Source: Escherichia phage PhiR44_2. From it: 35,994 nucleotides of DNA. The notes under the pieces are model-generated. The model saw only the letters and a program-made list of their open reading frames with translations. It was not told where the DNA came from and ran no database searches. Shown one piece after another: positions 5,317 through 9,505 of the stretch. The position numbers and the translations under genes were made by a program. Where the stretch lies: the sequence record PV340564. One strand, written 5' to 3'. Positions within the stretch are counted from its first letter, which is position 1. Every line of letters starts with the position of its first letter.

Positions 5317-8153
5317 GTGAGTTTGCATGGAGCTGGAATGAACCACGGCCAGCCATTGATCCAGCCAGATTTACGGAGCACAGGCAGGAAACTGAAACCG
5401 ACCTGCAACGCGCCATCCGTTACTACCTTGAGGCGGACAAAAGGGCACAGAAAGAACAGGAAGCAAAGGAAGAAGCCTTTTTCGCACAATCCGCCATGGG
5501 TAAAAAACTCATGGCATCCCTTGAGGAAGCCGGACAGCGTGAAAAGCTGGCACAGAGCATCATCAGTAAGCGCCGGGCAACAGAACAAGACCCGGTAGCC
5601 CGTGCCTTTGCCACACTGAAGGCGCTTCCCGTTTATCTGCGAGAACCTCTGAGCCGCCACCTCTCTTTCCTGCGCAAGAAGCAGGAAGCCGATCGTCAGA
5701 AAGGCAAAAAGAGCTGGCAGGCGGAACGCTATGCACGCGGAACCCTGCGCAAAATATTCGAACGTCTGGACCGCACCGACAGCCGCTGGCTGACACCGGG
5801 TTATCGCTCTCTTGCCGGACGCGAACGCCTGGACGATTTGCTTTACCTGCCGCAGCTCAACAAACACCAGATACAGACGCTGGCCACCATGACGGCGGCG
5901 ATGTTCAGCAGCACCTTCGAAAAACTCTGCGATGGCTTTGGCGCGACTGATGGCGAACTGACCATGGATGTAACGCTGAAGGCGTATCAGATGCTGGCCC
6001 GCATGGCGTTACACCTGCACATCATGCCTCCACATTATGACGCACTGACAACAGATAAAGACCGGAGGAACGAACCGGACACGGAGCTGCTGCCGGGCGC
6101 AATCCTTCGCCTGACCTGTGCGGAATGGTGGAAACGCAAACTGTGGCTGTTACGTTGCGAGTGGAGAGAAGAACAACTCCGCGCCGCCTGTCTGGTTTCC
6201 AGAAAAACATCACCCTATCTGAGCCAGGACGCGTTAAGCGAGTTTCGCGCACAGCGCGAGAAAACACGCGATTTCCTGAAAAGTTTCATGCTGGAAAATG
6301 AAGACGGGTTCACGATTGATCTCGAGACGGTGTATTACGCGGGAGTAAGTAACCCGGTTCACCGTAAGGCAGAAATGATGGCCACCATGAAGGGACTGGA
6401 ACTTCTGGCCGAAGCCCGTGGCGACAGAGCGGTGTTTCTGACTGTCACCTGCCCGTCAAAATACCACGCAACAACGGAGAACGGTCATCCGAACCCCAAA
6501 TGGAACGGGGCCACCATGCGCGACTCCAGCGATTACCTGGTTAACACGTTTTTTGCGGCGGTCCGCAAAAAACTGAACCGCGACGGCCTGCGCTGGTATG
6601 GCATCCGCACGGTGGAGCCTCACCATGACGGCACCGTGCACTGGCACATGATGGTCTTTGCTCATCCAGAAGAAATCGACAGCATCGTGGCCATCACCCG
6701 CGATATTGCCATTCAGGAAGACCGCCACGAGCTGGGCAATGATATTACTCCGCGCTTTAAGGTGGAGTATGTCGACGGCTCAAAAGGCACACCAACCAGC
6801 TACATCGCCACCTACATCGGAAAGAACCTGGACAGCCGCGCCGTGGATGGCATCGACCCGAAAACGGGCAAGCCACGCGTTGACCACGAAACCGGAAAAT
6901 CAATGGCCGAGAGCGTGGAACGCGCCATCGGCTGGGCGCGCCTTCACCGAGTCCGCCAGTTCCAGTTCTTTGGTATCCCCTCCCGTCAGGTGTGGCGTGA
7001 ACTGCGCCGCCTTGCCAGCCAGATGGCACGCAACCCGGAAGGCCCGCAACGGCTGAAGGATGACGCAATGGACGCGGTACTCGCTGCCGCTGATGCCGGA
7101 TGTTTTGCCACCTACATTGAGAAACAGGGTGGCGTACTTGTTCCACGCAAAGACTACCTGATTCGCACCGCCTACGACCTCGCAGATGAGCTGAACGATT
7201 ACGGCGAGCAGAGTGTACAGATTTACGGGATCTGGTCGCCGCTCATCGGGGAGTCTTCCCGCGTGTGCACGCACCCGGATAACTGGAAGCTGGTAAGACG
7301 TAAACCGGAAGCGGAAGACAGCGCCCGCGAAAATGGTTTTGACCTTCAGGGCGGCCCTGCCGCCCCTTGGACTCGTGGCAATAACTGTCCCCGTGTACAG
7401 GAAACGGACAACAACGGGACAGAACAGCCGGAAGAACGGCCAGCACCGTGGCCGCAGCTTCCTGACGGCGTTGACGTGAACGAATGGATGCGCTCACTGA
7501 AACGGCACGAACGCCGGGCGCTGATGCGTTCGCTTCGTGACAAACAGGCAAAAAACAGCAGTGATGAAATGCAGAGCTGGACACAGAGCCGCAAACAGCA
7601 GCGGCCTTTGCCTGATAACCACGAATTACTCGCTAAAGAATGGCGGGAATCTGCCGAATCTCTCGGCCTGCATATCGGTGAACAGCAGATGCAGCACCTG
7701 TTACGGGGCGGCAGTCTGTACGTTGACGGCAGCATCATTGCACCGCAGGGATTTGAAATTGTACGCAAACCGGATACCCGACCGGACAGCCGGATCACGC
7801 AGCTCTGGCAGCGCCTGAGCCGTAACCACGGCGTAAGCAGTACGGAGATCCGCCATAACCCGGTCGCCAGCTATCTGGAACAGCTGAGGGCATCAGACCC
7901 CGAAGCCGCCGCACGCCTGGCATCCACACTTCAGCAAGACCAGAACACCATGAAAACACCCGTTACCGTGCTTTCTGACATGCTGCGCGCCATCCGCGAC
8001 GCAGAGCACGCACAGAGAATCAGTGAAACCACTGAACGCGCCCGCCGCAAAGCAGACCTGCTGCGGGGTGGCCTGACCAGTGGAAACAAAAAACAGACAG
8101 AAACGGGATTCACAAATCCCGTAAATGAGCAAAAAACGCGCCGCGATATATGA
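5313..8153 (+). CDS. A: Replication initiation endonuclease, P2 gpA-like (HUH rolling-circle initiator)
   Basis: Contains HUH-type motif VHWHMMVF; position after early genes; about 946 aa from ATG at 5313. Confidence 0.85.
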   Translation: MSEFAWSWNEPRPAIDPARFTEHRQETETDLQRAIRYYLEADKRAQKEQEAKEEAFFAQSAMGKKLMASLEEAGQREKLAQSIISKRRATEQDPVARAFATLKALPVYLREPLSRHLSFLRKKQEADRQKGKKSWQAERYARGTLRKIFERLDRTDSRWLTPGYRSLAGRERLDDLLYLPQLNKHQIQTLATMTAAMFSSTFEKLCDGFGATDGELTMDVTLKAYQMLARMALHLHIMPPHYDALTTDKDRRNEPDTELLPGAILRLTCAEWWKRKLWLLRCEWREEQLRAACLVSRKTSPYLSQDALSEFRAQREKTRDFLKSFMLENEDGFTIDLETVYYAGVSNPVHRKAEMMATMKGLELLAEARGDRAVFLTVTCPSKYHATTENGHPNPKWNGATMRDSSDYLVNTFFAAVRKKLNRDGLRWYGIRTVEPHHDGTVHWHMMVFAHPEEIDSIVAITRDIAIQEDRHELGNDITPRFKVEYVDGSKGTPTSYIATYIGKNLDSRAVDGIDPKTGKPRVDHETGKSMAESVERAIGWARLHRVRQFQFFGIPSRQVWRELRRLASQMARNPEGPQRLKDDAMDAVLAAADAGCFATYIEKQGGVLVPRKDYLIRTAYDLADELNDYGEQSVQIYGIWSPLIGESSRVCTHPDNWKLVRRKPEAEDSARENGFDLQGGPAAPWTRGNNCPRVQETDNNGTEQPEERPAPWPQLPDGVDVNEWMRSLKRHERRALMRSLRDKQAKNSSDEMQSWTQSRKQQRPLPDNHELLAKEWRESAESLGLHIGEQQMQHLLRGGSLYVDGSIIAPQGFEIVRKPDTRPDSRITQLWQRLSRNHGVSSTEIRHNPVASYLEQLRASDPEAAARLASTLQQDQNTMKTPVTVLSDMLRAIRDAEHAQRISETTERARRKADLLRGGLTSGNKKQTETGFTNPVNEQKTRRDI

Positions 8154-8195
8154 AGCGCGCATAAAACAGGCAAAAACGGGATTTCAGAATCCCGT
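8103..8195. promoter_or_regulatory. parC-like centromere/operator: two copies of palindrome ACGGGATT-N4-AATCCCGT flanking a putative promoter
   Basis: Palindromes at 8103-8122 and 8176-8195, both followed by TAAA; located immediately upstream of the ParM-like gene. Confidence 0.5.
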
Positions 8196-8229
8196 AAACG
8201 ATTAATTAATCAACATAAGGAAAAGCGAC

Positions 8230-9189
8230 ATGAAAATTTGTATCGATGACGGCTCCACCAACATCAAGCTGGCATGGACTGAGAACGGCGAACGCCGCAA
8301 CGCCATCAGCCCGAACAGCTTCAAGTCGGAATGGTCTGCGCCGTTCGGTGGCACGCAGCCCGCGAACTACATGCTTGATGGCGTGCGCTATGGTTTTGAT
8401 CCGGTCAGCGATCGCTTTGTCCAGACGACTGACACGCAATACCAGTACAGCGATGTGAATGTCATTGCCATTCATCACGCGCTGGTCAAATCAGGCATCA
8501 CGCCACAGGAGGTGGATGTGGTTGTCACCCTGCCACTGAGCGAGTATTTCGACACAAACGCACAGCCGGACATAGCCAACATCAACCGCAAAAAAGCGAA
8601 CGTTATGCGCCCGGTGGAGTACCAGAACGGCGAAGCATTCACTATCCGTAACGTACGGGTTATGCCTGAATCCATTCCGGCTGGCTTTAAGGCACTGGCT
8701 GACATGAGTCCGTTTGAATCCCTGCTGATTGTGGATTTAGGCGGAACCACGCTGGATGTGGCAAAGGTTCAGGGACAACTGGCAGGTATCAGCCAGGTGT
8801 TTTGCGATCCACACGTAGGCGTTTCCCTGATGGCCGATGCCGTACTGTCGGTGATGGCCACTAACGGTATGCGTACCAGTCACCACATCGCCAATACCAT
8901 TATCGAACATCGCCATGATGAAGCCTGGCTGCGCCAGCACATCCACAATGACGCGCATTACGCCAGCCTGATGGCGGTTATTCGTGAAAAGGAAGAAACA
9001 CTGAAACAACGCGTGATCCGCGCGCTGGCGGGTTTTTCGGGTTACGGGCGGGTGATGGTTGTCGGTGGCGGGGCAGAGATTGTGGCACCCGCTATCCGCG
9101 AAGCCTGCGGAGTTAATGCGACTTTCATCGCGGACGGGGTGCCACAGTTTGCTCTGGTTAATGGGCTGTACGCAATGGGCAAGGAGTAA
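8230..9189 (+). CDS. parM: Actin-like segregation ATPase, ParM/StbA family
   Basis: N-terminus MKICIDDGSTNIKLAW and motifs YSDVNVIAIHHAL, VMPESIPAGF, LIVDLGGTTLD, VMVVGGGAE match plasmid R1/R100 ParM/StbA as recalled. Confidence 0.85.
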   Translation: MKICIDDGSTNIKLAWTENGERRNAISPNSFKSEWSAPFGGTQPANYMLDGVRYGFDPVSDRFVQTTDTQYQYSDVNVIAIHHALVKSGITPQEVDVVVTLPLSEYFDTNAQPDIANINRKKANVMRPVEYQNGEAFTIRNVRVMPESIPAGFKALADMSPFESLLIVDLGGTTLDVAKVQGQLAGISQVFCDPHVGVSLMADAVLSVMATNGMRTSHHIANTIIEHRHDEAWLRQHIHNDAHYASLMAVIREKEETLKQRVIRALAGFSGYGRVMVVGGGAEIVAPAIREACGVNATFIADGVPQFALVNGLYAMGKE

Positions 9190-9193
9190 ACCA

Positions 9194-9505
9194 ATGACGA
9201 CACCAACCAGACGGATAAGTTTCTATCTGAAGCCCGCCGCCGTCAAGAACGAAGGCGAAGCATGCGCCTGGCTGGACAGCCTTACACCAGAAGCCCGCAA
9301 AAGTGGTCAACGCGTGGCTTTTCTGGCCGGGCTGGCACTACTGAAAATGAATCCGGCAGAGGCTTACCGACTGGCTGCATGGGCTGATGATGAGGCGTTA
9401 TCAATGACACAAACCAGGACAGAACGCCCCGCGTCACAGCCAGTATCAGCCGCACAGATAACCAGTCAGATGGCCGGAAATATCCGGGCGTTATTTCCCG
9501 AATAA
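9194..9505 (+). CDS. parR: ParR/StbB-like centromere-binding adaptor
   Basis: About 103 aa directly downstream of parM with RBS AAGGAG; RRISFYLKP...FLAGLAL...IRALFPE resembles R1 ParR (RRTIAFKLNP...LTAGLAL...LRSLFPKE, recalled). Confidence 0.6.
   Translation: MTTPTRRISFYLKPAAVKNEGEACAWLDSLTPEARKSGQRVAFLAGLALLKMNPAEAYRLAAWADDEALSMTQTRTERPASQPVSAAQITSQMAGNIRALFPE

Follow-up and report, generated by a model that had tools for sequence, protein, structure and literature searches.

Introduction

Type II segregation loci of the ParMRC class, as found on plasmids R1 and R100 (NR1), combine a cis site (parC) with genes for the actin-like ATPase ParM (StbA) and the adaptor ParR (StbB). In R1 ParR (PDB 4a62), the C-terminal tail is the part that binds ParM; R1 pairs ParMRC with a second stability locus, hok/sok, and the centromere of plasmid pB171 is an iteron array. 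Here, we describe a ParM/ParR gene pair and its putative cis site in Escherichia phage PhiR44_2 (sequence record PV340564), analysed as a stretch of 35,994 nt that we call the window and number from its first letter.

Phages also encode active partition. The plasmid prophages P1 (ParAB-parS) and N15 (SopAB) use type I systems built on Walker ATPases, and their lysogenic state is a plasmid, with no integration. The integrated prophage CGP3 of Corynebacterium glutamicum carries AlpAC, an actin-like filament former with a co-transcribed adaptor, which binds the operon’s own upstream region (alpS); AlpAC is switched on soon after excision, and efficient replication of the circular phage DNA depends on it (Donovan et al., 2015; PMC4446434).

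The cassette studied here is already annotated, very common and in print, and is not novel. RefSeq annotates it as ParM plus a partitioning protein, and phage P88 is annotated with a ‘plasmid segregation protein ParM’ and a ‘partition protein’, which the P88 paper does not discuss; the annotation of the Citrobacter rodentium prophage phiSM likewise lists a partition gene. In the hotspot between genes A and Q, roughly one P2-like phage in four has a putative partition system, for which plasmid maintenance has already been suggested speculatively, and the arrangement ‘StbA + Plasmid_stab_B’ appears hundreds of times in the tables of that study (Rousset et al., 2022; PMC9122126). That arrangement and ours are one cassette at one locus, reported there without analysis of cis site, phylogeny, selection or replicon state and without experiment on the cassette.

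To this we add a single ParM clade, purifying selection, a conserved two-element cis site that travels with parM and the lack of a detectable sigma-70 promoter. On its predicted products, the pair is a genuine, intact type II (ParM/ParR) gene pair in an integrative P2-like prophage. Our preferred reading, to which we assign a probability of roughly 0.55, is that it forms a functional ParMRC-class cassette that acts on the transient circular phage genome, much as AlpAC does for CGP3, and not on a stable plasmid prophage. What remains of interest is the role of such a cassette in an integrating phage and a cis site unlike the plasmid paradigm.

Results

An intact ParM/ParR gene pair behind gene A

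The window is a P88-like (Xuanwuvirus) P2-like prophage: positions 8050-9560 are 98% identical to phage P88 (genus Xuanwuvirus, Peduoviridae) and 100% identical to the chromosome of Escherichia coli AVS0756, where the prophage adjoins pdxB and has the integrase at its end. Reading of positions 7600-10200 and listing of their open reading frames (ORFs) gave a plus-strand order of gene A (5286-8153; Pfam Phage_GPA, 4e-131), a 76-bp gap, parM, parR, a gene for a ClpX-zinc-finger protein and several small genes. The far end of the A-Q hotspot is marked by the portal gene Q (12097-13143, minus strand), and a tyrosine integrase gene occupies 183-1202 (minus strand).

The gene parM (8230-9189, plus strand), which starts MKICIDDGSTNIKL, encodes an actin-like segregation ATPase of 319 aa. 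The protein is matched end to end by the Pfam domains StbA_N (3.6e-82, residues 1-157) and ParM C-terminal domain (1.3e-68, residues 159-316), and also matches PHROG 691 ‘partition protein’ and the R1 ParM structures in the PDB (1mwk; E 2.5e-93 over residues 2-317). Over its full length it is 47% identical to the R1/R100-type ParM of an IncF plasmid. Its ATPase motifs are identical to those of R1 ParM, namely IDDGSTNIKL (phosphate 1), MPESIPAG (catalytic PES), DLGGTTLD (phosphate 2) and GGGAE (adenosine), and these nucleotide-binding and hydrolysis motifs are invariant across the phage clade described below. By these matches the predicted product is a full-length type II actin-fold ATPase of the ParM/StbA family.

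The adaptor gene parR (9194-9505, plus strand; 103 aa) starts 5 nt past the parM stop. ParR matches Pfam Plasmid_stab_B (PF10784; 2.5e-24) and PHROG 2515, and its first 56 aa show 34% identity to R1-type ParR. A phmmer search of the PDB with the single ParR sequence gave no match, and a profile built from 20 ParR alleles had its best hit among solved structures in pB171 ParR (PDB 2jd3; E 0.0012, residues 9-75 against 11-76), which supports a ribbon-helix-helix N-terminal domain. In the allele alignment the protein falls into three parts: a conserved N-terminal domain (1-63) that includes the strand RRISFYLKP, a hypervariable linker (64-95) and a conserved C-terminal tail. The tail, NI(R/Q)xxFPE, is invariant across otherwise hypervariable alleles and aligns with the tail NNIKNLFPD of IncI-type plasmid ParR; it may correspond to the ParM-binding tail, a likeness that we take as a lead only.

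Across 95 loci of E. coli P88-type prophages (L009-L012, L042-L121) ParR occurs in 49 protein variants, whose differences are nearly confined to the linker; over the same loci, parM and the sites 5′ of it keep 95-99% identity. Because the linker is allele-variable, many matches in complete E. coli genomes end at window position 9248. No covariation of ParR alleles with variants of the upstream palindromes was evident, the beta-strand region of ParR being invariant across alleles.

The ratio of non-synonymous to synonymous substitution rates (dN/dS) of parM against the window averages 0.085 (105 unique parM sequences), and in 48 unique E. coli-type haplotypes the variable sites of parM are distributed 24/20/117 over the three codon positions. 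The ORF is intact in 190/190 parM copies, a count restricted to full-length, ungapped copies, and dN/dS over ParR codons 1-63 is 0.25. Since dN/dS is low and all such copies are intact, the sequences indicate that parM is under strong purifying selection and that the parMR cassette is kept by selection and is not a decaying passenger. Some P88-type loci have no parMR after the first upstream palindrome (e.g. H79, H80), or a truncated parM.

A preliminary description of this DNA, made from the letters alone, had proposed a ParM/StbA and ParR-like pair downstream of A in an integrative P2-like prophage. The Pfam and PDB matches, the integrase gene, the alignments to R1 ParM and ParR and the undisrupted catalytic motifs bear this out, and its phrase ‘close to R1/R100 ParM’ overstates an identity of 47%.

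Distribution and replicon state

The cassette is present in 1308 of 5426 complete E. coli genomes (24%). It had been called unexpected in a phage with an integrase, a word that does not suit a cassette of this frequency, annotated in RefSeq and published with the same episome speculation (PMC9122126).

Each ParM with at least 54% identity to the window protein is encoded between gpA and a portal gene of P2 type and is followed by a Plasmid_stab_B gene. Besides the P88 type in E. coli and Salmonella, these phage-borne proteins come from Plesiomonas (63%), Hafnia (62%), Serratia (58%) and Enterobacter-type (54%) loci. Those at most 52% identical are all in other contexts; plasmid ParMs belong here, and >5000 plasmid records carry ParMs of this lower range. 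The phage-linked ParMs group together in a neighbour-joining tree, as one clade that spans five enterobacterial lineages, and tblastn of ParR against 72,556 PLSDB plasmids found only seven records, all with P88-like DNA. The ParM tree is incongruent with gpA: the Hafnia ParM is near that of E. coli, yet its gpA is 33% identical, and the Serratia and Enterobacter-type ParMs are sisters, with gpAs that share 49% and 30% identity with the query. It thus seems that the cassette moves between P2-like phages and always lands in the A-Q hotspot.

Two records stand out by their labels: a P88-type locus with 97% ParM identity is filed under Vagococcus sp. (L012, NZ_JBQPOM010000071.1) and a plasmid-type ParM under a Lachnospiraceae metagenome-assembled genome (L035, CAAFVW010000115.1). 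Both probably reflect enterobacterial DNA that contaminated these assemblies or was mis-binned.

In the complete E. coli genomes the cassette occupies 1454 chromosomal places against 2 on plasmids, and a 12-kb phage query gave 1785 against 2. All members examined have the integrase. The prophage is overwhelmingly chromosomal and does not show the extrachromosomal lysogenic state of a phage-plasmid.

These counts bear directly on the alternative that survives best, and which we still consider unlikely: that the cassette maintains a plasmid prophage, as a stable low-copy episome or facultative phage-plasmid, for instance in hosts whose attachment site is already taken. PMC9122126 voices this idea, and the preliminary description raised it too. 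In its favour, the cassette is a bona fide plasmid-type partition system, and the same phage has a Hok/Gef toxin gene, another module of the plasmid-stabilisation type. It is further favoured by a PLSDB entry, pZ1323PEC0009-2, a circular record of 34,461 bp that comprises a whole P88-like genome including int. That record has no replicon type in PLSDB’s MOB-suite typing, and its phage is 100% identical to a prophage integrated in the sister strain Z1323HEC0067, so that the assembler may have captured excised or replicating DNA as a circle; strain Z1323PEC0009 lies outside the complete-genome set, and the integrated copy is known from the sister strain only. The retained integrase and the ratio of chromosomal to plasmid places tell against an episome as the normal lysogenic state. 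The rolling-circle initiator gpA, of P2 type, is the sole recognisable replication gene, with no plasmid-type replication or copy control beside it, and repressed, copy-controlled plasmid maintenance is not known to go together with gpA rolling-circle replication. Were the cassette to support a facultative episomal state, P2-like phages would have to be counted as phage-plasmids.

A putative two-element cis site upstream of parM

Two perfect 8-N4-8 palindromes with a GGG-N10-CCC core lie 5′ of parM. Palindrome 1, ACGGGATT-CACA-AATCCCGT (8103-8122; -127 from the parM ATG), is the putative distal ParR site, and palindrome 2, ACGGGATT-TCAG-AATCCCGT (8176-8195; -54), the putative proximal site or operator. 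Both had been noted in the preliminary description at exactly these positions, the first inside the 3′ end of A, as is the case since A ends at 8153. Each is contained in a copy of a 42-nt direct repeat, copy 1 (8087-8128) within the last 22 codons of A and copy 2 (8160-8201) in the A-parM intergenic region; the copies are 81% identical and spaced 73 nt start to start. At up to three mismatches the palindromes are the sole two matches in the window, where 0.12 were expected, and none of 100 shuffles gave two or more.

The GGG/CCC triplets of palindrome 1 are intact in 175 of 189 related loci; for palindrome 2 this holds in 154 of the 189, with CCT in 30. In IMG/VR, 108 loci combine the exact palindrome with a ParM match, and there it stands only at -127/-126 (70 copies) or at -54. 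Among those with no ParM match, five are internal to unrelated contigs and resemble chance hairpins, and five lie at contig ends.

Between genera, the GGG-N10-CCC pair recurs at -125/-52 from the parM ATG in the window, -131/-59 in Plesiomonas and -128/-55 in Hafnia, with the inner and flanking bases diverged and the spacing held at 72-73 bp, about seven helical turns, in all three lineages. None of 20,000 mononucleotide shuffles per region reproduced such a layout, a test that measures conservation and not independent origin, the regions being homologous. In Hafnia and Enterobacter-type loci other ORFs stand between A and parM and the repeats remain directly 5′ of parM, so they are part of the parMR cassette and not of A or its origin. 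The palindromes were also considered as a replication origin, which we reject, as the elements stay with parM when ORFs part it from A. Position and conservation make it very probable that parMR has its cognate cis site in these two palindromes.

Repeats are arranged differently in the Serratia/Enterobacter-type clade, which has a long inverted repeat, GGGAAC-GAAATAGAAAAAT ... ATTTTTCTATTTC, and, in Serratia, a second palindrome, GCCGTTTAAACGGC, that is degenerate in Enterobacter-type loci. The left flank of repeat copy 2, ACAGGCAAAAACGGGA, also occurs in a Serratia phage locus (L005) and is near-identical in another locus (L013). In this clade the ParR strand reads RKISFYLKP against RRISFYLKP elsewhere; this joint change of the site and the DNA-reading strand suggests, from two groups only, the pattern expected of a ParR operator.

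That the palindromes act instead as RNA hairpins, or as minus-strand terminators that insulate the early operon from antisense transcription, with the true centromere elsewhere, is in our view improbable. Both score as terminator-like on the minus strand (stem, then T-run) and fold at -10 to -11 kcal/mol on either strand; they show no excess conservation over flanking DNA within E. coli, and the same 20-mer turns up as a chance hairpin in unrelated viral contigs. Yet at the corresponding positions in Plesiomonas and Hafnia just the GGG and CCC triplets survive, and none of the four elements folds into a stable hairpin (three of them lie at -4.6 to -6.5 kcal/mol; z ranges from -0.5 to -2.5 across the four), which favours protein recognition of duplex DNA. 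Relatives share both the spacing of 72-73 bp and the distance to parM, there is no one strand on which the common variants are consistently wobble-compatible, and the window has no further copy. Nor do the palindromes look like conserved intrinsic terminators, with no U-tract on the plus strand, a fit on the minus strand in the window and no stable stem in Hafnia and Plesiomonas. An Rfam scan of 7500-12200 at E<=1 gave no match, hence no known RNA element overlapping the parMR module.

Directly 3′ of parR there is a 10-bp perfect inverted repeat, CATCAGGGCG-GATG-CGCCCTGATG (9511-9534), an uncertain member of the module; like the two upstream palindromes, it is terminator-like on the minus strand only.

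The preliminary description had also seen in the palindromes the layout of parC, flanking a probable promoter. Of this, a putative cis site that recurs 5′ of parM stands, and it consists of only two inverted repeats and no 2 × 5 iterons; the promoter is not supported, since a consensus scan found no sigma-70-like site in 7900-9700 and the spacer between the palindromes, which includes the A stop codon, is poorly conserved. The sole invariant motif in the upstream regions of E. coli, Plesiomonas and Hafnia is ATTAAT (8201-8206, plus strand), which lies 3′ of palindrome 2 and was missed by the promoter scan; this motif may be a weak -10 element that ParR would overlap, or may belong to the translation-initiation region. 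The scan found no plus-strand terminator between A and parM. Because no promoter for parMR alone and no such terminator were detected between A and parM, the pair is probably co-transcribed with A from the early (replication) operon. The early operon of P2 is repressed by C in the lysogen, so ParMR would be made when the genome is an extrachromosomal circle.

Neighbouring genes and hotspot cargo

The A-Q location is a hotspot rich in defence systems (PMC9122126), which raises the further alternative of a competition or defence module, acting through incompatibility with plasmids or phages of related centromere or through interference with incoming DNA. A KAP NTPase and HicAB follow the cassette as defence-type cargo in two loci (L005, L006), and an S8 peptidase and an AAA ATPase lie between StbA and Plasmid_stab_B in some loci. 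A PADLOC scan of ParM, ParR and the five downstream proteins found no family at E<=0.1, and a known defence system was rejected for want of a match. Cross-incompatibility with plasmids is made unlikely by a ParR and sites unlike those of plasmids, as seen in the seven P88-like records among 72,556 and in the iteron centromeres of R1 and IncI. The cassette is conserved as a clade whereas true hotspot cargo turns over, and we rate a role in defence slightly below the hairpin explanation.

A neutral or decaying hitch-hiker, captured from a plasmid by recombination and now useless to the phage, is hardly credible: an integrated prophage has no obvious need of partition and some P88-type loci have lost parMR or truncated parM, but the low parM dN/dS, the 190 intact copies, the intact catalytic motifs, a single phage-specific clade at one genomic position in five genera and a ParR whose N-terminal domain and tail are conserved while its linker is free to vary all speak against it.

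Several neighbours of the cassette deserve mention. The 110-aa protein encoded directly 3′ of parR (9569-9901, plus strand) has a ClpX C4 zinc-finger as its only recognisable part (Pfam 6.8e-18); it is kept in P88 (96%), is missing at the Hafnia, Plesiomonas, Serratia and Enterobacter-type loci, and may be a ClpX mimic or adaptor. Further downstream, an XF1762-family protein (10215-10706, plus strand; NCBIfam 5e-61), which also weakly resembles Mom (PHROG 1384 ‘Mom-like DNA modification protein’), is hotspot cargo 3′ of the parMR cassette.

The non-coding early stretch a few hundred bases 5′ of A holds two Rfam matches above gathering score, to isrK (4370-4444, plus strand; 64 bits) and to C4 antisense RNA (4480-4567, plus strand; 83 bits), which together make up a P1/P7-type antisense immunity element within a P2-like phage. 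A Hok/Gef-family toxin ORF occupies 34190-34327 (plus strand; Pfam HOK_GEF 4.1e-07, above cut-off) with 98% identity to P88 gp52, and no Sok-type RNA was found at the Rfam gathering score. Relatives of both of R1’s stability loci, ParMRC and hok/sok, are thus found in the phage of the window. At the far right end lies a gene for a VasI (type VI secretion) family protein (34930-35823, plus strand; Pfam 5.6e-25); ORF1 of phiSM has been listed as a ‘T6SS VasI family protein’ (Magaziner et al., PMC6456863).

Discussion

We propose the following course of events for a cassette that works on the transient circular genome. ParR dimers would bind, through their ribbon-helix-helix N-terminal domains, the GGG-N10-CCC palindromes at -127 and -54, which are 73 bp or seven helical turns apart and would hence face the same side of the helix. 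The conserved ParR C-terminal tail would capture the ends of ATP-ParM filaments, and growth of the filaments would push sister DNA circles apart. If expressed with A, parMR would act following infection or induction, when the phage genome exists as a circle outside the chromosome. The products of P2-type replication are monomeric circles that also serve as substrate for packaging; a ParMRC system can act on plasmid-like objects of this kind. The monomeric circles from gpA-driven replication would be dispersed or partitioned, as AlpAC does for CGP3, with no permanent plasmid prophage.

A more specific version of this reading, possible and to be held tentatively, is that of a phage-adapted minimal ParMRC, its centromere cut to two palindromic ParR sites and its genes expressed with A, that disperses or positions circles during lytic growth or before integration. 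In a variant, low-level expression in the lysogen would let the integrated site act on the host chromosome.

Several observations weigh against the transient-circle reading and its ParR-bound palindromes. The circular PLSDB record is one. Searches of the literature turned up no experiments on ParM from P88-like or P2-like phages. An AlphaFold2 model of the ParR monomer, built on a 20-sequence alignment, is too poor to confirm the fold (predicted local distance difference test 55, predicted template-modelling score 0.32). Across the 48 unique E. coli-type haplotypes, conservation of the palindromes does not exceed that of the non-coding bases around them, palindrome 2 has CCC>CCT in 16% of loci, and pair-breaking variants are common (T8109C in palindrome 1, A8176G and C8193T); support for the palindromes comes from the between-genus comparison only, because the E. 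coli population test gave none. The repeat layout of the Serratia/Enterobacter-type clade also differs. With two sites against the 10 iterons of R1 parC, a full partition complex may fail to assemble, and the two could act as an operator and nothing more. A weak or activator-dependent promoter is compatible with the lack of a consensus one, and ATTAAT as a -10 element may permit expression in lysogens.

Whatever its task, about a quarter of sequenced E. coli strains hold an intact, selected actin-like segregation machine within an integrated prophage. If the minimal ParMRC is real, actin-like DNA transport would belong to the normal life cycle of a prophage that roughly every fourth E. coli strain carries, and its naturally minimal two-site centromere would allow one to ask how few ParR sites a ParM spindle needs. 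If the circles are organised as by AlpAC, cytoskeleton-assisted virus replication would extend to the best-studied bacterial host.

The parA loci of R1 and R100 (NR1) share with the phage cassette the gene order (cis site, parM, parR) and the Pfam families StbA_N, ParM C-terminal domain and Plasmid_stab_B. By eye, the phage half-site core AAxCCC(G/A) resembles the A-CCC-A core of R1-type iterons. The cis sites differ in build: R1-type parC has 2 × 5 direct 11-bp iterons flanking a clear promoter, whereas the phage has two 20-bp inverted repeats 73 bp apart, the distal one inside a coding region, no recognisable promoter between them and no direct iteron array around a parMR promoter. If this is a centromere, it would be a minimal, operator-like one. 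The replicon differs as well, a plasmid for R1 and an integrating phage here, and the phage ParR is too diverged from R1-type plasmid ParRs for tblastn to find any plasmid ParR. The IncI-type locus has a 10-bp periodic iteron array, in contrast to the two inverted-repeat sites of the phage, and pB171 ParR (deposited as ‘StbB protein’), the best structure match, is similar at profile level only, and weakly.

Among phages, P1 and N15 likewise encode active partition, but the system of the window is type II and its phage integrates. The closest precedent is AlpAC of CGP3, likewise borne by an integrated prophage; its host is a distant Gram-positive bacterium and the proposed likeness in function is by analogy. 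The fit of the P88-type cassette to that type is circumstantial only, given by its place directly behind A with no terminator or promoter between them.

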